A stretch of 10,519 nt of DNA from Candidatus Heimdallarchaeota archaeon (GTDB taxonomy: Archaea; Asgardarchaeota; Heimdallarchaeia; Heimdallarchaeales; Heimdallarchaeaceae), in contig DAOVET010000090.1 in the NCBI GenBank assembly GCA_030668825.1, positions 1 through 10,519 on the forward strand, in the 5' to 3' direction. Position numbers and translations under genes: made by a program. Under the pieces are notes generated by a model. The model worked only from the letters and a program-made list of their open reading frames with translations. It was not told the origin of the DNA and searched no databases. This document shows positions 929 through 10,519 of the stretch, piece after piece (position 1 is the stretch's first letter; each line of letters starts with the position of its first letter).

Positions 929-2092
929 TTATCTCTCTAGTACGATGAAGTAAAGTTCTAATTCAACTGGATTTTCTTCAAGAGGATAAGGATCTACTGT
1001 TGTTTCACCTTGAATTGCAAAAGGAATACTTGTGTTCCATCCTTCCCAATAGTTCCCTTCCATATTCGCTATATCGAACCAGGTGTTGTTTGAATAATAT
1101 GTTGATATTACATTTGCACTGGGCTGCTGACTGTTTTGTATGAAAGCATTATGGTGAATTATGTTATCTATTGATTGATCTATAAATATTCCATATTTTC
1201 TATTTTTTTCAATTAGATTATAGGTAATATTGTTATAATTTGAACCCTCTAGCCTAATTCCATTTCCAAATGTTGTAGATATATGATTGAAGCTTATGTT
1301 ATTAAACGATATAGAACTCAAATAAAGAAAAACCGCATAAATACCAAATCTGTTGTTTTCTGATATAGTGTTGTTACAGATATTCAAGTTAAATCCAAAA
1401 TGAATTTCTATTCCAGTTCCAACATTAGAAGGATCAACTTCCCACCAACGTGAATTCTTAAAGAAATGATTTAGAACAATATTCGTGAAATTAGAATCAG
1501 AAATATAAAACCCCCACTTGTTTTCGCTACAATTATTCTTCATAACATCCACAAAATGAGAGTAATCTATCATGATTCCAATATCGTTTCTGCAAACTAT
1601 ATTATTAGAAATTTCTGAATTATGGCTTTTATATAATGATATACCTACATCAGTGTACATTATTGTATTATTTTCTATTGTAATGTGATTTGAATAATAA
1701 ATATCAATTCCTGAAAACCAATCAAAAGTGTTAGAAATATTGTTGTTAATTATTTTCCCTGTTCCATTTGTTATTTTGTAAAGGAAAATTCCCCCAAGAT
1801 AACCTATGATTCTACAATTCTGAATAACAAAGTGTTTAGAAGTGTTATATATCCTAATACCTATTCCAGAGTCAGGATCGAATTCCTCAGTATTTCGGGT
1901 AATTTGAAGATTTTCAATCAGAAATGGATCAGTAACGGTTCCTGTTCCTGCAAAATTATATCTATCAAAATCCTCATCAGAATAAATAACAATTGGTTTA
2001 TCTGGATGATCTCTTGTTAGAATAACTGGGATAATTACTGATATTGAAATAAGAAGTATCAAATAAATAACGTGGAATTTTGAAATTTTCAT
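929..2092 (-). CDS. Right-handed parallel beta-helix (NosD/PbH1-like) membrane-anchored or secreted protein, 387 aa
   Basis: N-terminal hydrophobic helix, GTGTVTDPFLIE cap motif, many repeats of the type I-x-N-N-x-I-x-x-N-x-x-G-I, and C-terminal IHHNAFIQN...GNYW...DPYPL motifs typical of archaeal NosD-domain surface proteins. Confidence 0.93.
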   Translation of the reverse strand: MKISKFHVIYLILLISISVIIPVILTRDHPDKPIVIYSDEDFDRYNFAGTGTVTDPFLIENLQITRNTEEFDPDSGIGIRIYNTSKHFVIQNCRIIGYLGGIFLYKITNGTGKIINNNISNTFDWFSGIDIYYSNHITIENNTIMYTDVGISLYKSHNSEISNNIVCRNDIGIMIDYSHFVDVMKNNCSENKWGFYISDSNFTNIVLNHFFKNSRWWEVDPSNVGTGIEIHFGFNLNICNNTISENNRFGIYAVFLYLSSISFNNISFNHISTTFGNGIRLEGSNYNNITYNLIEKNRKYGIFIDQSIDNIIHHNAFIQNSQQPSANVISTYYSNNTWFDIANMEGNYWEGWNTSIPFAIQGETTVDPYPLEENPVELELYFIVLER

Positions 2093-2114
2093 CGAAAGTA
2101 CTATCTTCGAGAAT

Positions 2115-2122
2115 TATTTAAA
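2115..2122 (-). promoter_or_regulatory. Archaeal-type TATA box (TTTAAATA) for 929..2092
   Basis: TATTTAAA on + at 2115-2122 lies 23-30 nt upstream of ATG 2092, the same offset as 820-827 relative to ATG 797. Confidence 0.65.
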
Positions 2123-2194
2123 GTATTGTCAAGTTAAACCATCAAACAAGCTTTAGTCAAATAGAAGTATTCAAACTAAGGAAATAAAATGGCA
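2116..2194. repeat. Diverged duplicate of upstream region 821..899 (offset 1295 bp)
   Basis: Ungapped manual alignment of 821-899 with 2116-2194 gives about 60/79 identical bases. The offset equals the distance between the two ATGs (2092-797=1295). Confidence 0.85.
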
Positions 2195-2302
2195 GAATGA
2201 GAAAATGTTTTTTCAGATATCAAAATGGGAAAAAATATTGAATTTTTCTCTTCTACAAAAACTGAGATTCCATATTATACTAAATGATAATATATAAAGT
2301 CC

Positions 2303-2408
2303 ACAAATCCCCCCAAACGTCAGAATTATCGAAAAATTCGGCTTTAAATAGTCAAATAAGTATACTCTTCTTGATGAGATATGAGTACAAAAAAGACAAA
2401 TCCCCCCA
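2303..2408 (+). repeat. 13-bp direct repeat ACAAATCCCCCCA (2303-2315 and 2396-2408)
   Basis: Two exact copies 93 bp apart flank the ATPase promoter and start codon. Confidence 0.7.
2343..2350 (+). promoter_or_regulatory. Archaeal-type TATA box (TTTAAATA) for the MoxR operon
   Basis: Same octamer as the two minus-strand promoters, ending 30 nt before ATG 2381, with a purine-rich GAAAAA stretch shortly upstream. Confidence 0.55.
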
Positions 2409-3367
2409 GAAAAAAATCACCTAAGTCTACTTCTACAACTGGATCATCAAGTTCTAAGAAAACTCCCATTAAAGAGCTATCTGAAGATACATTTTATGAT
2501 AAAATAGATACACTGTTTGTTAAAGATAATACGCCAGATGTAGAACTAGTTAATAAAGGACAATACAAAGATGCATTCGAACTGTTGGAAGATTCAATGG
2601 CATGTCAATTAACGCCAATGTTAGTAGGGCCCCCAGGAACCGGCAAAACATTGTTAGCACGTAGTTTCGCTTCTTCCCAAGAAAGAGATTTTGAGTGGAT
2701 GACAATGGATGAATCCACAAAACCTGCACACTTTATAGGCTCTTTTGACCCCGCTGAAACAATTCGAAGAGGGTTTTCGAAAAAATCATTCATCCCTGGT
2801 GCATTAACTAAGATGATGGTATCAGGTGGACTTTTCTTAGCAAACGAGCTTAATAGAGCTACAGAGTTTGCACAAAACACTTTTCTCGAACCATTAGAAG
2901 AGAGAAGCATTTTACTTCCAAGGTTAGGGAGAATAAAAGCTGACGAGTCATTTTTCTTGATCTGCGCCGCAAACCCCGGAGACATGGCCGGAACCCATAG
3001 AATCTCGGAAGCGCTTAAAGACAGAATCAAGGTTTGGATCAAGCTAGATTATCCATCAAGGTCTGTTGAAATGGAAATCATTCATGCTAATATTCCACAA
3101 AGTAAACTATCTAAAGACTTCCTTAATTTGACACATGAATTGATTGCAGCTACTCGTTCAAGTAGAGAGATTGAGAGGCCTGCTTCTGTCAGATCCGCTA
3201 TAGCCATTGTTAAACTTGCAGGAATGAAGGAGAAGAAAGAAAAATTACTCACTATTAGTGACTTTAAGTCAATTTCAAAGATGGTTTTAGCGGGAGGAAT
3301 CAAGGCTAGACCCGGTTTTGAAGAGGACAAACTGGTCAGTAAGATTGTTGACAATGTGGTGAAGTAA
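2381..3367 (+). CDS. MoxR-family AAA+ ATPase (AAA_5 / CoxD-GvpN-CbbQ-like clade), 328 aa
   Basis: Walker A GPPGTGKT (2627-2650); helix-2-insert region HFIGSFDP...FIPGAL; Walker B-like GGLFLANELNRA; QNTFLEPLEER; sensor I ICAANP; arginine finger SEALKDR; LDYP; lid with sensor-II-like SVRSAIAI. It has a K/S/T-rich low-complexity N-terminal tail. Confidence 0.95.
   Translation: MSTKKTNPPRKKSPKSTSTTGSSSSKKTPIKELSEDTFYDKIDTLFVKDNTPDVELVNKGQYKDAFELLEDSMACQLTPMLVGPPGTGKTLLARSFASSQERDFEWMTMDESTKPAHFIGSFDPAETIRRGFSKKSFIPGALTKMMVSGGLFLANELNRATEFAQNTFLEPLEERSILLPRLGRIKADESFFLICAANPGDMAGTHRISEALKDRIKVWIKLDYPSRSVEMEIIHANIPQSKLSKDFLNLTHELIAATRSSREIERPASVRSAIAIVKLAGMKEKKEKLLTISDFKSISKMVLAGGIKARPGFEEDKLVSKIVDNVVK
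3358..3362 (+). promoter_or_regulatory. Shine-Dalgarno-like GGTGA before TTG 3370
   Basis: GGTGA ends 7 nt before the TTG and lies inside the end of the ATPase gene, supporting the TTG start and translational coupling. Confidence 0.5.
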
Positions 3368-3369
3368 CC

Positions 3370-5943
3370 TTGACAATAAGTCTTGTAGACTTTGGAGCTT
3401 TGTTTGTTGAAGAAGCTAGAAATGCTGTCCATGAAGTACCCGGAATCAAGAGAACAGTTTTTACTAGCAGACAATCACAAGCAATAGTTTCACTAGGAAT
3501 TACTAAATTAATAAGAACCCAAGAAGAACTAGGAGCTGACGATTTAGTTAACCTCTCCGTGATAACGTCTCCACCGGAAGCTCAAAAATACTCTGAAATG
3601 ATTGCTTTGAGAATTCTTTTTGGAGATGTAAGAGACGTTTTAACTCCAACTTTTGATGTTCCAACAGCTGATGGAGCTTACGAAGAAGAACCTGAAATGG
3701 ATCCTCAAATCAAAGCCCAACACTTGCTGTTAAATGAAGTACTGAGCTTTTTGGAACTACAGAAATCTGTCGATTTAAGTAAAGGTCTAGAAGAGCTTCG
3801 CTTTGCTGAATTCGCTGAGGAGGAAATCTATTCCTCTGATCCCAGCAAATACGATAAATTCAACTATGACCAGAAGCTGGACTTAGCCAGGAAAAGAATA
3901 GCTTATAATCAGATTGGTGGTCGATCTGGTATTTTACAAAATCATCAAACTAATTGGGAACAAGTATTTGATTCTGCGAAGAAAAACATTCAGAAATCTG
4001 TTCCCCATATAGATAACTCTGGGATGATTAATTCGGAATTTTTAGATGCTAGCAAAGATGTTAGGAAATTAACCAGAGAACAATCCATACGCAATTTATC
4101 TGAGCTCTTTGAAGGTGTTAAACAACCTGAAACAGAGGATATGAGTCATTATGAAGGAATTATAGATAACATGACACAAAGAGAGATTTTCAATTCACTA
4201 AAAGCAATGAATGAGCTTGAATCCCAACTAAGAAGGATGGGTCTACCTCAAAGTAAGTTCGCTCCATCACTCCAAAAAATCCAAGATTATCTTGGTCAGA
4301 AGTATAGAGATGAAGCCTCAACATTAGATGATATTCTCAACCAACCTAATCTCTTCGATGATCATCTTACACGAGAGAATCTTGAGGAATTCGTGGAAAA
4401 TTCCATGAAATATAGTTCACCGATGGAGTTGTTAGATAAAGCTAAGAAGGTTGATGATCTCTTTGGAACTAATCTTTCAAGTTATGCTTATGATAAATAT
4501 CAAGAAGAGTTTAGAGAATTGGAGATGGAAGATTTCATCGACAATCCTATTTCTTCAGCTGAATGGTTTGATTCTTTTAACCAGAAATTAGACGAATTCA
4601 AAGAGGATGAAACTCTGAATTGGGAAGATCAACATCAAATGGCTCAAGATTTACTTTCTCTAAAAGATCAAATAGGTAACGAGTTTATCTCAAATCAACT
4701 TGATGAGGAGCTTGAGCATTTTGTTGACCGAATGATATCAAGTGCAACCACTCCTGAACAATTGGTAGATTCTGTAGATTTTGCTCGTGATTATGACATC
4801 AAGTTCAACCCTCAGAAAGTGAAAGAGAAAGGTCAAGAAATCGGTATGTCCAATGAAGAAATAGCCAGATTACTAGGTGGAGCTTTTGAATATGTAAAAA
4901 CAATGATTCAAAACAAAGAAGCGACCTTTGAAAAAACTCATGTTATTCTAGATAAAGCACAACTTTCTCAACAACAGATTCAAGAACTAATTGACCTTTC
5001 AATAAATGAACAATCTGAGGGGGCTTTAGGAGCTTTAGCAACCATTGATTTAAAACAAGTAACTGATTCAATTCCTAATACACCAGAAGGACATGAGCTT
5101 CTAGAAAAGGCCTTAGGGGCTGGAGGAGGAGAGAATTTGCTCCATCAGTGGTTCGAACATGCAAATACTTTAGCTCCCTGGTTACGTCAAATTGTTAAGG
5201 ATCATGCTAAGAGAATAATGATTGATCTTGCTAAGAAGAAAGCTGCAAGTTTGATTGGATCAAGTGAGGCTGGTCCTTTACCTGAAGGAAGTACTCGACC
5301 ATATTTTCTTGGAGATGACTTGGATACAATAGATTTGGATGAAACAATCGATAACATTCTAGACCAAGGCAAGAGAATAGAAGATGTAATAATTGATGAC
5401 TTCATTGTTAGAAAAACAATTACTGGAAGACGATGTGTAATTTTTCTTGTAGATATTAGTGGATCAATGAGTGGTCCCCCCTTAGCCAGTGCCTCTATTG
5501 CAACTGCTATGCTTTTGATAACTTTTTCACGAGACGAACTAGGTGTAGCTCTTTTCGAATCTAATACTCATGTCCTATGTGAGATTGATGAAAAAGTAGA
5601 TCTTGATGAAATCGTTGACCAAGTCCTTGATCTGGAAGCACGAGGTGGAACCCAAATGCAATCTGCTCTTGAATGGGCTGAAAAGCAATTTGACCTATCT
5701 AGAAGTGAAGATAAGATGTTCATAATGGTTTCTGATGCTGGTCTTGGTGATTTCAATCGCTGCCAACCTCACTTAGAAAAGATAGCTGATTTAGGAGCAA
5801 CATGTACACTGATTGTTCCTCATACTATGTTTGGCATGGGAAATATTCAAAGTATTCTTAATGCCGCTCAAGCTGAACTTGTAACTGTCAAAGATTGGAA
5901 AGATTTTCCTGAAATAGTGAGTGAGATATTATCGAGGGTGTAA
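3370..5943 (+). CDS. Large acidic vWA (MIDAS) domain protein, CoxE-like MoxR partner, 857 aa
   Basis: C-terminal vWA domain: VIFLVDISGSM (DxSxS at 5452-5466), GGT and FIMVSD, preceded by a CoxE-like IDLDETID motif. Long D/E-rich helical middle region. TTG start lies 2 nt after the ATPase stop. Confidence 0.93.
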   Translation: MTISLVDFGALFVEEARNAVHEVPGIKRTVFTSRQSQAIVSLGITKLIRTQEELGADDLVNLSVITSPPEAQKYSEMIALRILFGDVRDVLTPTFDVPTADGAYEEEPEMDPQIKAQHLLLNEVLSFLELQKSVDLSKGLEELRFAEFAEEEIYSSDPSKYDKFNYDQKLDLARKRIAYNQIGGRSGILQNHQTNWEQVFDSAKKNIQKSVPHIDNSGMINSEFLDASKDVRKLTREQSIRNLSELFEGVKQPETEDMSHYEGIIDNMTQREIFNSLKAMNELESQLRRMGLPQSKFAPSLQKIQDYLGQKYRDEASTLDDILNQPNLFDDHLTRENLEEFVENSMKYSSPMELLDKAKKVDDLFGTNLSSYAYDKYQEEFRELEMEDFIDNPISSAEWFDSFNQKLDEFKEDETLNWEDQHQMAQDLLSLKDQIGNEFISNQLDEELEHFVDRMISSATTPEQLVDSVDFARDYDIKFNPQKVKEKGQEIGMSNEEIARLLGGAFEYVKTMIQNKEATFEKTHVILDKAQLSQQQIQELIDLSINEQSEGALGALATIDLKQVTDSIPNTPEGHELLEKALGAGGGENLLHQWFEHANTLAPWLRQIVKDHAKRIMIDLAKKKAASLIGSSEAGPLPEGSTRPYFLGDDLDTIDLDETIDNILDQGKRIEDVIIDDFIVRKTITGRRCVIFLVDISGSMSGPPLASASIATAMLLITFSRDELGVALFESNTHVLCEIDEKVDLDEIVDQVLDLEARGGTQMQSALEWAEKQFDLSRSEDKMFIMVSDAGLGDFNRCQPHLEKIADLGATCTLIVPHTMFGMGNIQSILNAAQAELVTVKDWKDFPEIVSEILSRV
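5934..5940 (+). promoter_or_regulatory. Shine-Dalgarno-like GAGGGTG before ATG 5945
   Basis: The motif is within the last codons of the vWA gene, 4 nt before the ATG. Confidence 0.45.
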
Positions 5944-5944
5944 A

Positions 5945-8900
5945 ATGATCAGCAATATGGTAAAAGGATCAAGATACTCCCGTGCTCGAGCTATTTCTGA
6001 CAGAAGTGTTGTCGAATTTAAGATTCTGAATCAGAAACCTCTCGTCACTTATTGTTTAATTCAAGGAAGTGCTCCTGAGCCATACATAGTTTTTATTGAC
6101 TTGAAGAAGAATGTTGTAGGTCATTATTGTCCCGATTTTGCTAAAGGGAGAGGATGGTGTAAACATCTTGGAAAATTACTCCTTATGTTAGATGAAAAAC
6201 ATGTCAAAGCTATTAACGATAATTTCAGAAATTTTACTATAATTAATATACAAAGCAATGTCAACAATCAAATCGACAAATATAAACAACATTTACTCAA
6301 AACAAACGGTGCTGATGAAGATATTACTCTGGAAAAACAACTAAAAATTCTTGACAATATGATGATGCAGAACCAGAAAATAGACGACATCATCCCTGCT
6401 ATCCTTTCTTCCATCAAGAAGGAGTTTTCGAAGATTGCTGATAATCTTATCCTTTTTAGATTAAATCTTTTGATTTCAGGAATTCCGAGTACATCACGAA
6501 AACTCACTTTCGAAAAAATACAAAAGCCATTATTAAGAGCTTTTTCTAAAGCAACAGCTTATTTCACAAAAAACTTCTGGATACAATCAACACCAAAGAG
6601 ACTAGAACAAGCATATATGATTAACGATGTTTCTTATGCTTTAACAAAACCATTTTCGATTAGCAAAATAACCTTTCCTGATAATATAGTTGAACAGGAA
6701 AAAATCGATGCATCCTTAATTTTGAAAGTATTATTTCGAGATGATCAAAAAGCGTATTTTGATGCTGCTAAGAAACTGGGTTTAGATTTTACCAATGAAG
6801 TTTTAGGTAAAAGAGCTGAACGAATTCTCTCTTCAATAAAAATATCCTCAACTGTTGTACCTCAATTAGAATCATGGTTGCAAACACAAGTGATAAGGAA
6901 ATATTCTTCTTTAACTCGTTATCGAAATTATGATGATTTTCTCATTTATCTGATGAAAACAGCTGGAGAAACAGTTAATTACCATCTTAAATCTGGAAAT
7001 AGAAGTGGTGGGATGACTTCTTTTCCTGTAACCCTTTTAGAAGAAAATCCTTGTTTAAACTTCATAATTGAACATATTAAGGAAAGTGAACGAGAATATC
7101 TTTTAAGTAGAGAAATACAAAATTCAAGTAAATTCTTCGATTGGTTAGCTGGTAAGAAAGTTGATTCTGTTTATGTTGAAAAACCTCGTTCTCGAGCATT
7201 GGAATCTTCTCTCAAGAAAAATGGTATTATTATTCAATGGGATATCAGCTTAAATAGAAAATTCAGAGAGCAGTTTCAAGCGTATCAAGGATCCCAGAGA
7301 TTTATCATAGATCCAACATCCCCAATTAATTCTATAATTCAACCTTTTGATTATACGCTCTGTATCCCACAGATGAAAAAACAGAGTAATGGCACAAAGA
7401 CTACCTATCCACAACAAATCTTGCTTCCTGATCAGGTAATTAAGCTTGTACTACAAGGAGTTCCTATTATTTCGAATGTACTTCGTTGGGAGGTTATCTC
7501 AAAATTCGTTAATGAAGGATACTTGTCAGGTGGGGATGTTTTAGCTTCTATAGCTCATTCTGAAAAAATGAACTTTATCTATGGTAGTTTTGAGCTAGTA
7601 AAAGCTCTTGAGGAAATTGTAATTCTGGGAAAAGCAGGTTTAACTGACAATCAATTTTTAGATTATCAGAAGAAACTTAAAAAAGAATCTTCGAGAGTAA
7701 ATGTTGCAGTACGTGATATTTGCAGAGAATTTGTTCAATCTGAAGGCAAACAACTACAAGCAGTTTTAGACCTGCTAAAACTAGATGAAAACGAAAAACT
7801 AAGATTAGTAGTTAATGGTATAAGAAACACAAACTCTATAGCTGTTTTCCGTAAGTATATTGTAAGATCAATAACTAAAAGCTACTTCAATGGAACTAGT
7901 CTTGAAAAAACATTTTTTAATCAAATAGAAACTCTCCATCACAGTCATTATTATACTGCGATGGATGTTGTTTCTGATCAGCTTTCTGTATATTATATTA
8001 ATATGGAAAATGTCCTTCTAGGAAAAATTCCAACTAGGAAACAAGTGTATGAGAATCCACTAGGGAAGATACTGATTGAGAAATTAAATTTCCAAAAAGT
8101 AGGCGATTTTACTGATACAGAGAAATTTGAAATATACTTAAATCTAATTAAAATCCGTTCTTATTTCGTTGTAGAAGAAGAAAAGAAATCAGATCCCAAG
8201 ACACAGAAACAGCTTCTTACTGATCTCATTTATCAGAGCTCTGAAGGAGAGTTTAGAGAAAGAATTCGGATAATTACTCAAATTTGCCTCTTTAATAACA
8301 ACAGGTCTTTAGATTTTCTAAGAGATTTACTAGCTGATAAAGATGAGAAAATTCGTGATATAGCATTTATTGCTTTACAATTCAGAAATGACAAAGAACT
8401 GAAGAATCATCTTAAGGAATTATTAGAACATCAACAAGAACCAGTTAGAGAGAGCTCAATAACTAATATGCTGAAACTGAGAGAATCAAAAGTATTTGAT
8501 TATGTCCTTAATGCAATGAAAAATGAATCAACTATGGTGAGAAGAATAGCTCTCAGATCTCTCGTTCAGTCGAAATTTAATCAAGAGAAAAAATTAGTCG
8601 GATCTGATGATGATAAAATATACAATTGCTTCATTTCTTGTCTGGAAGATCAAGATGAAAACATCAAAAATACAGCTATTGATAACATTATACGCGAACC
8701 TTTTGAGATTATAAAAGATATTCTCTTTAAGGCACTGGATAATGATTCCCAGCATGTTAGAAAAGTCGCAAGCGAGCAGCTTAATGAAAAAGGAGATAGT
8801 AAGTTAATAAAAAATACTCTGATGAAAGCTAAAGATGATATCGATACTGGAATCAGATCTTTTGCTTTAAAAAATATAGCTGTAAGAAAATATACTGAGG

Positions 8901-10519
8901 CTCCAAAGCTGATAGAAACTGCTGTTCTAGAGAAAAATACTGAGTTCATAAAGGATCTCATTGGATATCTTCTTATTCATGATATTCCAAAACAAAATTT
9001 GACATCTAAAACTATCCAGAAAATTATTGAATATCATGTAGCAAATAACTTAGAATTCAACAAAGCAGTCACAGAAACCTTGAAGGATTATGGAGATGAT
9101 ATTGTCCCTTTTTTAATTGAAGCTCTAAATAACAAGGGTTACACGAACAAGGGTTCTGTTGTAAGATTTCTCGAATTTCTAAATACTAAGAAAGCAGTAG
9201 AACAGATAATTAAACTTAAAGATCACGATAATCATAAACTTCGAATTTTTAATTTAGATTATATTCAAAGAAACAGAATACAGGATGATATCAAAGAGAT
9301 TGTTGAAAATGCTCTTAATGATAAGAATCCAGAAGTTGCTTTCAAAGCTGTTCAAGTATATTTAGTTGGAAACATCACAATTAAGAACTATTCAAAGGAT
9401 TTTGTCAAAGCGGCACTACGAACTTATGCTGAAAGAAATATGAGTTTCGCAGGAATTATTTTTGAAACACTTAGTAAACTAGGTGACCAAGTAATTGATA
9501 ATATTGATATAATCTTAAATTCCAACTCTATTAATACTAAACTTACTTCAATCAAACTTTTAGTAGAGATTGGTTCTAAAGATGCAATTAATAAGATTAT
9601 AGAATTACTTAATCATGATGATGAGGTCGTAAAACGAGAAGCTTATGACTACATTATCTGGATTGACCATCCTGAAGCAAGGAGTATAATCAATAAAGCA
9701 TTGAAAGAAAAAGATCAGACGATAAGGAGGATGGCTATACAAAAATTTCTCAAAGGGAAAATAGCTAAAGCAAATATCACTGATAACCTGATTAAGGCAT
9801 TAGTAACTACTCCAATAACAGGAGAGGAGTATACAAAAACTGTCACTCTCACACTCTTAAAAGTACATGATAAGGCGCTTCCTATTATCGAATCTGCATT
9901 CAAAACACAACCACTCGAAACTAAACGGTTTCTTACTGGAATACTTGCTCAATATGATACCAAAGAATCTAAAAACCTTATATCCAAACTCTTCAAAGAT
10001 AAAGATCAAGAGATAAGGCTATATTCTATGAATTTTACAAGAGCGAATAACAAAACCAAATTGAAAGAAGTTTTAGATAAGGCTGTAGAAGACAAAGATC
10101 CCAAAATCAGAGATGTTGCTCTTAGAAGTTTAACTGATAACATCCCTGTATTAAGTTATAGTGACAAACTTATCCGTTTATTAGTTCAAAACTTTTTACA
10201 GAAAAATGATCTCCCAGCTTCTAGAGCACAAGCTGCTTTGAGGAAAATTGGTAAAAAAACTATTCCATTCTTATTAGAAGGTTTAGCTAGTGATCACGCT
10301 TATGTTATAAGATATTCAGCAGAGATTCTAGGTGATTTAAAAGCAACAGAAGCTACAGACTTAATTGTACCCTTATTAACAAACTCAGAAGTACAGTTAC
10401 GACGAAGTGCTGCATATTCATTAAGAAAAATTAAGAATAAGAAAGCAGAAAAAATTATGATAGATTCATTGCATGATAACGACCTTTATGTCCGAAGAAG
10501 CTTGATTAAAGGGCTTGGA
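5945..10519 (+). CDS. Giant SWIM-like Zn-finger + HEAT-repeat protein (at least 1525 aa; 3' end runs off the window)
   Basis: Missing from the ORF track because there is no stop in the window. The frame was read manually and is open from ATG 5945 (1 nt after the vWA stop) to 10519. It begins MISNMVKGSRYSRARAI...PYIVFIDLKKNVVGHYCPDFAKGRGWCKHLGKLLL (H-x-C-x9-C-x-H, 6122-6166). HEAT/PBS-lyase-like repeats run from about 8250 (LRDLLADKDEKIRDIAFIAL, ALDNDSQHVRKVA, LLTNSEVQLRRSAAYSLRKI, SLHDNDLYVRRSLIKGLG). Confidence 0.93.
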   Translation, partial: MISNMVKGSRYSRARAISDRSVVEFKILNQKPLVTYCLIQGSAPEPYIVFIDLKKNVVGHYCPDFAKGRGWCKHLGKLLLMLDEKHVKAINDNFRNFTIINIQSNVNNQIDKYKQHLLKTNGADEDITLEKQLKILDNMMMQNQKIDDIIPAILSSIKKEFSKIADNLILFRLNLLISGIPSTSRKLTFEKIQKPLLRAFSKATAYFTKNFWIQSTPKRLEQAYMINDVSYALTKPFSISKITFPDNIVEQEKIDASLILKVLFRDDQKAYFDAAKKLGLDFTNEVLGKRAERILSSIKISSTVVPQLESWLQTQVIRKYSSLTRYRNYDDFLIYLMKTAGETVNYHLKSGNRSGGMTSFPVTLLEENPCLNFIIEHIKESEREYLLSREIQNSSKFFDWLAGKKVDSVYVEKPRSRALESSLKKNGIIIQWDISLNRKFREQFQAYQGSQRFIIDPTSPINSIIQPFDYTLCIPQMKKQSNGTKTTYPQQILLPDQVIKLVLQGVPIISNVLRWEVISKFVNEGYLSGGDVLASIAHSEKMNFIYGSFELVKALEEIVILGKAGLTDNQFLDYQKKLKKESSRVNVAVRDICREFVQSEGKQLQAVLDLLKLDENEKLRLVVNGIRNTNSIAVFRKYIVRSITKSYFNGTSLEKTFFNQIETLHHSHYYTAMDVVSDQLSVYYINMENVLLGKIPTRKQVYENPLGKILIEKLNFQKVGDFTDTEKFEIYLNLIKIRSYFVVEEEKKSDPKTQKQLLTDLIYQSSEGEFRERIRIITQICLFNNNRSLDFLRDLLADKDEKIRDIAFIALQFRNDKELKNHLKELLEHQQEPVRESSITNMLKLRESKVFDYVLNAMKNESTMVRRIALRSLVQSKFNQEKKLVGSDDDKIYNCFISCLEDQDENIKNTAIDNIIREPFEIIKDILFKALDNDSQHVRKVASEQLNEKGDSKLIKNTLMKAKDDIDTGIRSFALKNIAVRKYTEAPKLIETAVLEKNTEFIKDLIGYLLIHDIPKQNLTSKTIQKIIEYHVANNLEFNKAVTETLKDYGDDIVPFLIEALNNKGYTNKGSVVRFLEFLNTKKAVEQIIKLKDHDNHKLRIFNLDYIQRNRIQDDIKEIVENALNDKNPEVAFKAVQVYLVGNITIKNYSKDFVKAALRTYAERNMSFAGIIFETLSKLGDQVIDNIDIILNSNSINTKLTSIKLLVEIGSKDAINKIIELLNHDDEVVKREAYDYIIWIDHPEARSIINKALKEKDQTIRRMAIQKFLKGKIAKANITDNLIKALVTTPITGEEYTKTVTLTLLKVHDKALPIIESAFKTQPLETKRFLTGILAQYDTKESKNLISKLFKDKDQEIRLYSMNFTRANNKTKLKEVLDKAVEDKDPKIRDVALRSLTDNIPVLSYSDKLIRLLVQNFLQKNDLPASRAQAALRKIGKKTIPFLLEGLASDHAYVIRYSAEILGDLKATEATDLIVPLLTNSEVQLRRSAAYSLRKIKNKKAEKIMIDSLHDNDLYVRRSLIKGLG

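Follow-up and report, generated by a model that had tools for sequence, protein, structure and literature searches.

The whole contig DAOVET010000090.1 of a Heimdallarchaeial metagenome-assembled genome (MAG; GenBank assembly GCA_030668825.1, 2.76 Mb in 138 contigs, 90.6% complete), a stretch of 10,519 nucleotides referred to below as the window (contig C19 of this MAG), carries a cassette of three closely spaced genes that encode a MoxR-class AAA+ ATPase, a long von Willebrand factor A (vWA) protein and a very large third protein. This MoxR-vWA-third protein arrangement is a conserved unit across Heimdall-, Loki-, Thor- and Hel-type genomes, including that of the cultured Promethearchaeum syntrophicum MK-D1, and it is a three-component form of the MoxR-vWA theme that is undescribed in the literature searched. 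The core third protein is ~750 amino acids (aa) in length, and the giant form in the window is its lineage-specific enlargement. We give an even chance to the proposal that the cassette is a self-contained, ATP-driven remodelling machine of the AAA+/vWA type whose adaptor or client is built in.

MoxR-vWA pairs are widespread, and the mechanism is understood for a few of them, each tied to a known client. Asgard archaea are the closest known prokaryotic relatives of eukaryotes, and knowing the client of the cassette would close a gap in the understanding of their cell biology.

Organization of the cassette

ORF calling (open reading frames, ORFs) returned three long ORFs on the forward strand, with 2 nt between genes 1 and 2 and 1 nt between genes 2 and 3, and a Shine-Dalgarno (SD)-like motif precedes the start of each of the latter two genes. 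The coupled three-gene layout given in the preliminary description of this DNA was thus reproduced in full. The features of the cassette are as follows:

2381..3367, forward strand: gene 1, MoxR-class AAA+ ATPase, 328 aa, ATG start (Pfam AAA_5, AAA_3)
3358..3362, forward strand: SD-like GGTGA, 8-12 nt 5' of the gene 2 TTG start (sequence)
3370..5943, forward strand: gene 2, long vWA adaptor, 857 aa, TTG start (Pfam VWA_2, VWA_CoxE; AlphaFold2 (AF2) model)
5287..5940, forward strand: C-terminal vWA/MIDAS domain of gene 2, aa 640-857 (Pfam; alignment)
5934..5940, forward strand: SD-like GAGGGTG, 5-11 nt 5' of the gene 3 ATG (sequence)
5945..10519, forward strand: gene 3, ATG at 5945, open at the window end (ORF; completed on contig C64)
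5945..6244, forward strand: SWIM-like zinc-knuckle domain of gene 3, aa 1-100 (alignments; sub-threshold Pfam SWIM; AF2 secondary structure)
6245..8284, forward strand: core body of gene 3, aa 101-780 (AF2 model; without a Pfam family)
8285..10519, forward strand: HEAT solenoid of gene 3, aa 781-1525, with the last 40 aa on C64 (Pfam HEAT_2; PADLOC HEAT-ARM_XIII)

An alternative start of gene 3, GTG at 5921, would overlap gene 2. Contig C64 is 100% identical to the last 141 nt of the window, and on it the open frame of gene 3 runs on for 40 codons to a stop. Since C64 supplies these last 40 codons, the full product has 1565 aa, which is the length of its closest homologs, P0001 and P0002. The three genes are real and under purifying selection, as dN/dS against a sister MAG is 0.05 for the ATPase, 0.05 for the vWA protein and 0.14 for gene 3; the HEAT part of gene 3 has a value of 0.17.

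Conservation and distribution of the trio

In nine Heimdall loci, the long vWA gene lies directly 5' of the third gene (9/9), and the ATPase gene lies 5' of the vWA gene in the six whose contigs extend that far. An ATPase-based scan of 185,579 species genomes yielded 21 loci, nearly all labelled Heimdall-, Prometh-/Loki-, Thor- or Helarchaeota. ORFs were scanned at 13 of these: six carry the full trio (MK-D1, Harpocratesius repetitus, one Thor-, one Hel- and two Promethearchaeota genomes) and three stop at a contig edge. The ATPase-vWA-third gene order is also present in all 20 loci picked by third-protein matches, two of which are contigs already in the ATPase-scan set. Divergent paralog loci, with third proteins of ~785 aa, keep the arrangement in six of six cases, one with a 2.4-kb gap and one truncated and without a detectable ATPase. 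The preliminary description had proposed a three-component system and asked whether its gene order is shared among archaeal MAGs; the proposal stands on this point, because homologs of the third protein sit directly after the MoxR/vWA pair in other genomes wherever the contig permits a view.

Two more of the 13 loci scanned from the ATPase set may be mentioned beside these. At locus L029 (Promethearchaeota PPR_0005; 12462-12704) the ATPase and vWA genes are intact, and the third gene is detectable for its first ~80 aa only, the SWIM-like part; it is either degraded or strongly diverged. Locus L036, a 7.3-kb contig labelled Abditibacteriales, carries a trio-clade ATPase alone (436-1332; 54% identity, Asn-Glu Walker B motif), with no vWA or third gene 3' of it, where DUF2961 and adenylosuccinate synthetase genes are found instead. 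This bacterial-labelled copy could be the product of mis-binning or a transferred orphan.

When compared with 1.84 billion cluster representatives, the third-protein profile matched 191 at E<=1e-3 and 45 at E<=1e-30. Its weak matches are confined to the first ~95 residues and belong to small proteins of 100-250 aa or to fusions. At E<=1e-10, a match was obtained in 180 of the 400 genomes of the phylum and in 130 of the 135 genomes of one Loki-type family, often with two paralogs, counts that take in partial matches, divergent paralogs and small N-domain-only proteins. In the class of the window, where the genomes surveyed are mostly MAGs of 70-90% completeness, a match occurs in 11 of 83, including four of the 24 others of its genus. 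The N-terminal 780 aa of gene 3 has six database relatives; the four with source names are all Heimdallarchaeial, and two of the four carry HEAT repeats (1713 aa and 1381 aa). Judged by the records that carry names, the trio is so far restricted to Asgard archaea.

Evolution of the cassette

In a maximum-likelihood tree of 46 ATPases, all 37 trio-linked copies fall on one side of a long branch (support 98/97), so that the MoxR subfamily tree called for at the outset places them in a single clade. On the far side are the MoxRs of simple MoxR-vWA pairs, the other AAA_5 genes of the genome and Escherichia coli YehL, which has a very long branch. Within the trio clade, the ATPase of the window genus groups with two Promethearchaeota copies (99/94), apart from the other Heimdall family. 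Forcing the Heimdall ATPases to be monophyletic, a group that was chosen after the tree had been seen, costs 36 log-likelihood units (p 0.005 in the approximately unbiased test).

The G+C content is 35-40% across the ATPase and vWA genes (window 2001-6000) as against 29-32% in the flanks and the third gene (1-2000 and 6001-10519), which fits either strong coding constraint or foreign origin. Taken together, the Loki-type grouping, the patchy spread and the higher G+C of genes 1 and 2 suggest that the cassette moved between lineages within Asgard. Furthermore, the patristic distances of the three gene trees correlate with one another at r 0.95-0.97 over 31 cassettes, as is expected from co-inheritance; such a correlation is no proof of binding.

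The MoxR-class ATPase

The product of gene 1 matches Pfam AAA_5 at 72.3 bits (cut-off 22) and AAA_3 at 51.9 bits (cut-off 27), and its best single-module match in the PDB is MoxR 2r44 (59.1 bits), in keeping with the class to which it was first assigned. The Walker A motif is canonical (GPPGTGKT, aa 83-90). In the Walker B motif (LFLANELNRA, aa 151-160), Asn-Glu (N-E) replaces Asp-Glu (D-E) and the catalytic Glu is kept. Of 120 database homologs, 118 have this N-E form, as does every one of the 37 trio-linked copies, while two ordinary MoxR-like genes of the same genome retain D-E. Heimdall and Loki ATPases are ~70% identical, and the subfamily, taken at an identity of 46% or above, has at least 120 members, of which the named ones are all Asgard bar one labelled Methanobacteriota. 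The first 35 residues (window 2381-2485) form a Lys/Ser/Thr-rich, low-complexity tail. In other lineages this tail is absent or of another length, and ATPase lengths range from 299 to 409 aa.

The long vWA protein

The vWA domain of gene 2 is recognized by Pfam VWA_2 (41 bits) and VWA_CoxE (26.7 bits, cut-off 26.4), both confined to aa 650-815, and none of its MIDAS residues (D695-x-S697-x-S699, T761 and D789/D794) varies among the 13 sequences aligned. At 857 aa, with an N-terminus that lines up with the starts of its homologs, the protein is as unusually long as it had been said to be. In the AF2 model (predicted local distance difference test, pLDDT, 82.4), residues 1-630 are all-alpha, broken by a disordered acidic linker at aa 87-138, and are followed by the vWA fold; by composition the product has a net charge of -71. 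The 630-aa all-alpha, acidic N-terminal region matches no Pfam family, and an ESM Atlas search with aa 300-640 gave no usable match. This helical arm has 18 relatives, and all named ones are Asgard. A loop at ~aa 630-650 (SSEAGPLPEG..RPY.LGDD), between arm and vWA domain, is strongly conserved and modelled with low confidence.

A Foldseek comparison of the gene 2 model placed the VWA domain of NorD, from NorQD complexes, at the top (E 1.7e-6), followed by Rea1 and the MDN1 MIDAS; the longest aligned structural matches are likewise the AAA-coupled vWA domains of NorD and Rea1/MDN1 MIDAS. These matches raise the question of whether the cassette is a prokaryotic relative of midasin (Rea1/MDN1), with an AAA_5 motor, an acidic linker and a MIDAS that would act on ribosome-like particles. 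Gene 2 does have an acidic region followed by a MIDAS of this type, the host is an Asgard archaeon, and a search of PDB sequences with the ATPase profile ranks midasin first, at 112 bits. However, this score adds up the contributions of six AAA modules, none of which exceeds 25.6 bits on its own, against the 59.1 bits of the one-module MoxR 2r44. The match was therefore rejected as specific evidence for midasin, and we hold this kinship to be highly improbable.

The third protein

The first 100 residues of the gene 3 product are predicted by AF2 to form four β-strands followed by helices, and they hold the motif H60-x-C62...C72-x-H74 (HxCx9CxH), which is invariant in 14 of 14 aligned relatives. 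The SWIM signature is CxCxnCxH; in gene 3 a His takes the place of its first Cys, and the surroundings of the motif (CPDF...CKH) resemble SWIM. Pfam SWIM (PF04434, cut-off 19.6 bits) reaches 13.4 bits when the whole 780-aa N-terminal part is scanned and 17.1 bits when the scan is limited to the first 120 aa, and it is the top family in six of the 14 relatives at E<=1 (best E 1.5e-4). The nearest ESM Atlas clusters of the domain are SWIM at 0.84, which serves as a lead only. Since SWIM is the best Pfam family yet remains under its cut-off, the domain is named SWIM-like here. The four ligands of the knuckle would appear to make up a structural zinc site and not a catalytic centre.

Residues 100-780 are modelled at a pLDDT of 84.4 as helical repeats (~aa 84-340), an alpha/beta domain (~aa 357-500), which is the most conserved stretch of gene 3, and a helical domain (~aa 495-780). 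This region matched no Pfam family and nothing convincing among PDB structures, and the third-protein profile had no match below E 0.15 among PDB sequences. No enzyme domain was recognized in the third protein by Pfam or by structure comparison. Existing annotation labels the third proteins 'hypothetical protein' or 'HEAT repeat' throughout.

The remainder of the protein is a HEAT region (HEAT_2 160 bits, HEAT 66 bits; aa 790-1532). It is carried only by the Heimdall homologs P0003, P0128, P0004 and P0006, and the non-Heimdall third proteins, all of 620-940 aa, are without HEAT. The HEAT solenoid, 780 aa long, is therefore an extension specific to this lineage and not part of the core. What had been described as a SWIM-finger/HEAT solenoid of more than 1500 aa thus retains its length and its HEAT repeats; in place of the SWIM finger there is a sub-threshold HxC..CxH variant, and the solenoid drops out of the core system. 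The HEAT-fused form would represent a machine gaining a large protein-binding platform through gene extension.

Proposed mechanism

Given the gene structure, conservation, co-inheritance and domain identities described above, we infer the binding and force-transmission steps as follows. By analogy with NorQ-NorD, the ATPase may assemble as a hexamer, on which the vWA end of the 857-aa adaptor would dock, probably via the loop at ~aa 630-650 and the C-terminus. For NorQD, the published account (PMC13036017) describes a finger of the VWA domain that enters the ATPase pore and a motor that twists and stretches a linker in NorD; the loop at aa 630-650 is a candidate counterpart of that finger. ATP turnover would then pull on the long acidic helical arm of the adaptor, and this arm or the MIDAS site may hold the basic third protein. 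The latter could be either a substrate-recruiting scaffold or the thing remodelled, acting via its zinc knuckle, alpha/beta domain and helical domains, with the HEAT solenoid of the Heimdall lineage presumably adding a large protein-binding surface. Any external client would be encoded elsewhere than beside the cassette.

Several points weigh against this remodelling machine. No client is identifiable and the flanks vary by lineage. The patchy spread in the class of the window suits a transferable accessory module no less than a housekeeping one, and the same is true of the grouping of the window ATPase with Loki-type copies. In addition, the Walker B Asn is found in all trio ATPases, and the ATPase cycle may therefore be atypical or slow. 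Finally, expression evidence comes from a single public RNA-library run for MK-D1, which contains 77% of the sampled words of the locus. Its assembled contigs cover all three MK-D1 trio genes, one of them bridging the ATPase/vWA junction; they show neither strand nor level, and the coverage may derive from DNA carry-over. The presence of the trio in MK-D1, together with this coverage, makes the cassette experimentally reachable.

Comparison with client-bound MoxR-vWA pairs

NorQ-NorD, CbbQ-CbbO, CoxD-CoxE and RavA-ViaA all combine a MoxR AAA+ ATPase with a vWA partner, as does the cassette. In contrast to this group, the cassette has no metabolic client gene nearby, its vWA partner is extended to 857 aa by the 630-aa acidic all-alpha region, and it includes an obligate third gene with no solved-fold match; furthermore, its Walker B has N-E, not D-E, and the trio ATPases form a clade of their own. 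The absence of Rubisco, CODH and NO reductase from the window, as first reported, was borne out by the Pfam scan, and no NO reductase (NOR), Rubisco, CODH or chelatase gene was found in the window or among the flanking ORFs of the other loci.

MoxR-vWA pairs typically serve metal insertion, as stated in the NorQD report (PMC13036017), and the cassette might accordingly be a metal-cofactor insertion chaperone like NorQD, CoxDE, CbbQO or CobST. Its third protein would then be the matured metalloprotein, or a metal-delivery factor that uses the His/Cys site. A vWA domain of CoxE/NorD type, by the VWA_CoxE score and by the top Foldseek match, would suit such a role, as would the invariant H/C/C/H site, but the chaperone would be without a NOR, Rubisco, CODH or chelatase gene beside it, the knuckle ligands look structural, and the third protein has no recognizable enzyme domain. 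We regard this function as unlikely.

Comparison with the yeh locus

The E. coli K-12 yeh locus encodes the MoxR protein YehL, the 759-aa YehM, the vWA protein YehP and the SWIM protein YehQ, with 1210-aa DUF4132 proteins 5' of them. The yehL-yehM-yehP-yehQ genes and the cassette have a common module order, namely ATPase, large helical protein, vWA and SWIM-bearing protein, and the parallel drawn between the two in the preliminary description holds only at this level of architecture. The components are fused differently, however, and the cassette has no DUF4132 partner and has the HxC..CxH motif.

One could picture the cassette as an archaeal ortholog of the E. coli system, with YehM and YehP fused as gene 2 and YehQ extended as gene 3. 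Besides the parallel gene order, hhalign aligns the ATPase with YehL (96% probability) and the vWA domain with YehP (88%), but AAA and vWA similarity of this kind is common to MoxR-vWA pairs in general, and YehL lies outside the trio clade. No homology of the remaining components was detected, at hhalign probabilities of 0.1% (long vWA protein versus YehM), 0.06% (third protein versus YehQ) and 3% (SWIM-like profile versus YehQ), values obtained with single-sequence templates, whose limited sensitivity leaves room for distant homology. The Yeh system is itself uncharacterised. Orthology is, in our view, very unlikely.

Comparison with conflict systems

The ternary MoxR-vWA conflict systems of Kaur, Burroughs, Iyer and Aravind (2020; PMC7159879) resemble the cassette in joining MoxR, vWA and a large third protein and in their use of repeat scaffolds such as HEAT. 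In passages of that paper, HEAT, TPR and other repeats are said to be common in the effector position. The cassette had been put forward as a possible chaperone or defence module on such grounds; in a defence system, its third protein would be a sensor or a superstructure-forming scaffold that the ATPase/vWA pair activates on infection. Further features point the same way: Pfam bpMoxR (PF20030) scores 24.9 bits on the ATPase, just below the 27-bit cut-off; PADLOC-DB 2.0 reports HEAT-ARM_XIII at 88 bits; the spread in Heimdall genomes is patchy, there are signs of transfer within Asgard, and Loki genomes often have two paralogs; and two paralog loci have DNA methylases nearby. In other proteins the SWIM-like domain occurs joined to HerA, Hypoth_Ymh, RNase H-like or phospholipase C domains, as well as to DUF72 or HEAT.

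Against a defence role, none of the components has a nuclease, protease, TIR or pore-former effector domain, and Pfam and PADLOC scans of the cassette found no beta-propeller, VMAP or effector domain. PADLOC detected no known anti-phage system in the window; the HEAT-ARM_XIII hit is a generic repeat match, and beyond it there were weak IetA/TRIP13 P-loop matches and a 25-bit ThsB-like match within the HEAT region. Unlike the systems of Kaur et al., the cassette lies outside defence islands, with mostly metabolic or housekeeping genes around it, and is Asgard-restricted; its very high conservation, seen in the ATPase identity between Heimdall and Loki and its dN/dS, and its near-universal presence in one Loki-type family also argue against conflict. 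The terms 'SWIM', 'Lokiarchae' and 'YehL' do not occur in the main text of PMC7159879, the supplements lying outside that term search. On balance, the defence role appears rather unlikely, and the earlier suggestion of it is not upheld. No description of the trio and no matching characterised operon was found in the literature searched, in line with its having been called undescribed; the family might be listed in supplements to Kaur et al. (2020) or to surveys of Asgard gene families.

Simple pairs and the SWIM-like domain in other settings

Simple archaeal pairs of a MoxR ATPase and a short CoxE-like vWA protein have the same ATPase class and the same vWA type as the cassette, and their vWA aligns with the vWA part of the cassette profile (positions ~517-781). 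They differ in that the vWA protein has only 318-365 aa, no third gene is linked, and the ATPases fall outside the trio clade. The genome of the window has two such pairs, one adjoining PolD DP2 and the other near an intein-bearing MCM. At the former (L055, contig G000:C91, 5968-9945, reverse strand), a PUA/PAPS-reductase/4Fe-4S protein follows the pair after 4 nt, then an Lsm protein and archaeosine TGT, and the whole run is divergent from PolD DP2. At the latter (L056, contig G000:C69, 4628-8512), the MCM gene is split by intein and LAGLIDADG homing-endonuclease domains, and its neighbours are the pair and a Hel308-like helicase.

Archaea also have small proteins of ~191 aa, DUF2240 + SWIM-like, whose C-terminal half is a homolog of the N-terminal domain of the third protein and keeps its invariant H, C, C and H; they are without the rest of the third protein, and a MoxR-vWA pair is near them, not adjacent. 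In the Asgard family f12 (loci L083-L086, for example L083:5743-12332), such a protein (191-195 aa; N-terminal DUF2240 at 29.9 bits) stands between ORFs of 411-432 aa and 513-515 aa. At L083, the sole f12 locus scanned with Pfam, the two neighbours proved to be Orc1/Cdc6 and PolD DP1, and a PhoU protein is also encoded there. In three of the four f12 loci a simple MoxR-vWA pair lies 2-3 kb away. The Orc1/Cdc6-PolD DP1 setting of the SWIM-like domain is the one hint, an indirect one, towards a cellular process.

A bolder possibility is that the cassette encodes an AAA+ machine peculiar to Asgard archaea, in which the third subunit is structurally new. Such a machine would act on a core assembly of the cell, perhaps one with ties to chromatin or replication. 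This possibility is suggested indirectly by the SWIM-like domain between Orc1/Cdc6 and PolD DP1, by the simple pairs beside PolD DP2 and MCM, and by one trio that follows an HNH-Mre11-Rad50-HerA run, as well as by the near-universal occurrence in the Loki-type family and the presence in MK-D1. We consider this reading doubtful; if true, the cassette would be a lineage-defining remodelling system that is midasin-like in its working (AAA motor, acidic linker and MIDAS) and not a midasin ortholog.

Genomic surroundings

At the loci fetched, the flanks of the trio vary by lineage and consist mostly of metabolic or housekeeping genes, such as those for glutamine synthetase, RNase III, an ABC transporter, alpha/beta hydrolases, radical SAM enzymes and pyruvate formate-lyase. 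No recurrent client enzyme, effector or defence island was found among the flanking ORFs of these loci. The run mentioned above belongs to locus L040 (G146:C25, 2-8618), where genes for an HNH protein, a Mre11-like phosphoesterase, a Rad50-like ATPase and a HerA-like ATPase and a 387-aa ORF stand directly 5' of the trio; the run is on the same strand as the trio and was seen at L040 only. In MK-D1 (L030, 5530-7044), a protein of 505 aa that carries a deaminase toxin domain of BURPS668_1122 type is encoded ~1.9 kb 5' of the trio, on the far side of an ABC-transporter pair.

Rfam, tRNA and tandem-repeat scans of the window returned nothing relevant and no RNA gene. Two further sets of features lie 5' of the cassette:

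2343..2350, forward strand: TTTAAATA, TATA-box-like element ~31 nt 5' of the MoxR ATG (read from the sequence)
3-806 and 929-2092, reverse strand: two NosD/right-handed beta-helix paralogs, flanking and outside the cassette (Pfam NosD, Beta_helix)

TTTAAATA sits within a 288-nt AT-rich intergenic spacer (2093-2380), and we take it to be a candidate archaeal TATA box from its likeness to the archaeal promoter consensus. The two paralogs are arranged in tandem and divergent to the trio, and the ORF at 3-806 is open at the window start. Both have hydrophobic N-termini and are probably secreted or surface proteins; NosD/beta-helix genes are not conserved beside the trio elsewhere. On the other side of the cassette, contig C64 (L003) holds a large open-ended ORF (3138-5435, forward strand) in which subtilisin-like Asp/His/Ser motifs were noted by eye, and small zinc-ribbon and membrane proteins are encoded on the opposite strand between this ORF and the cassette.

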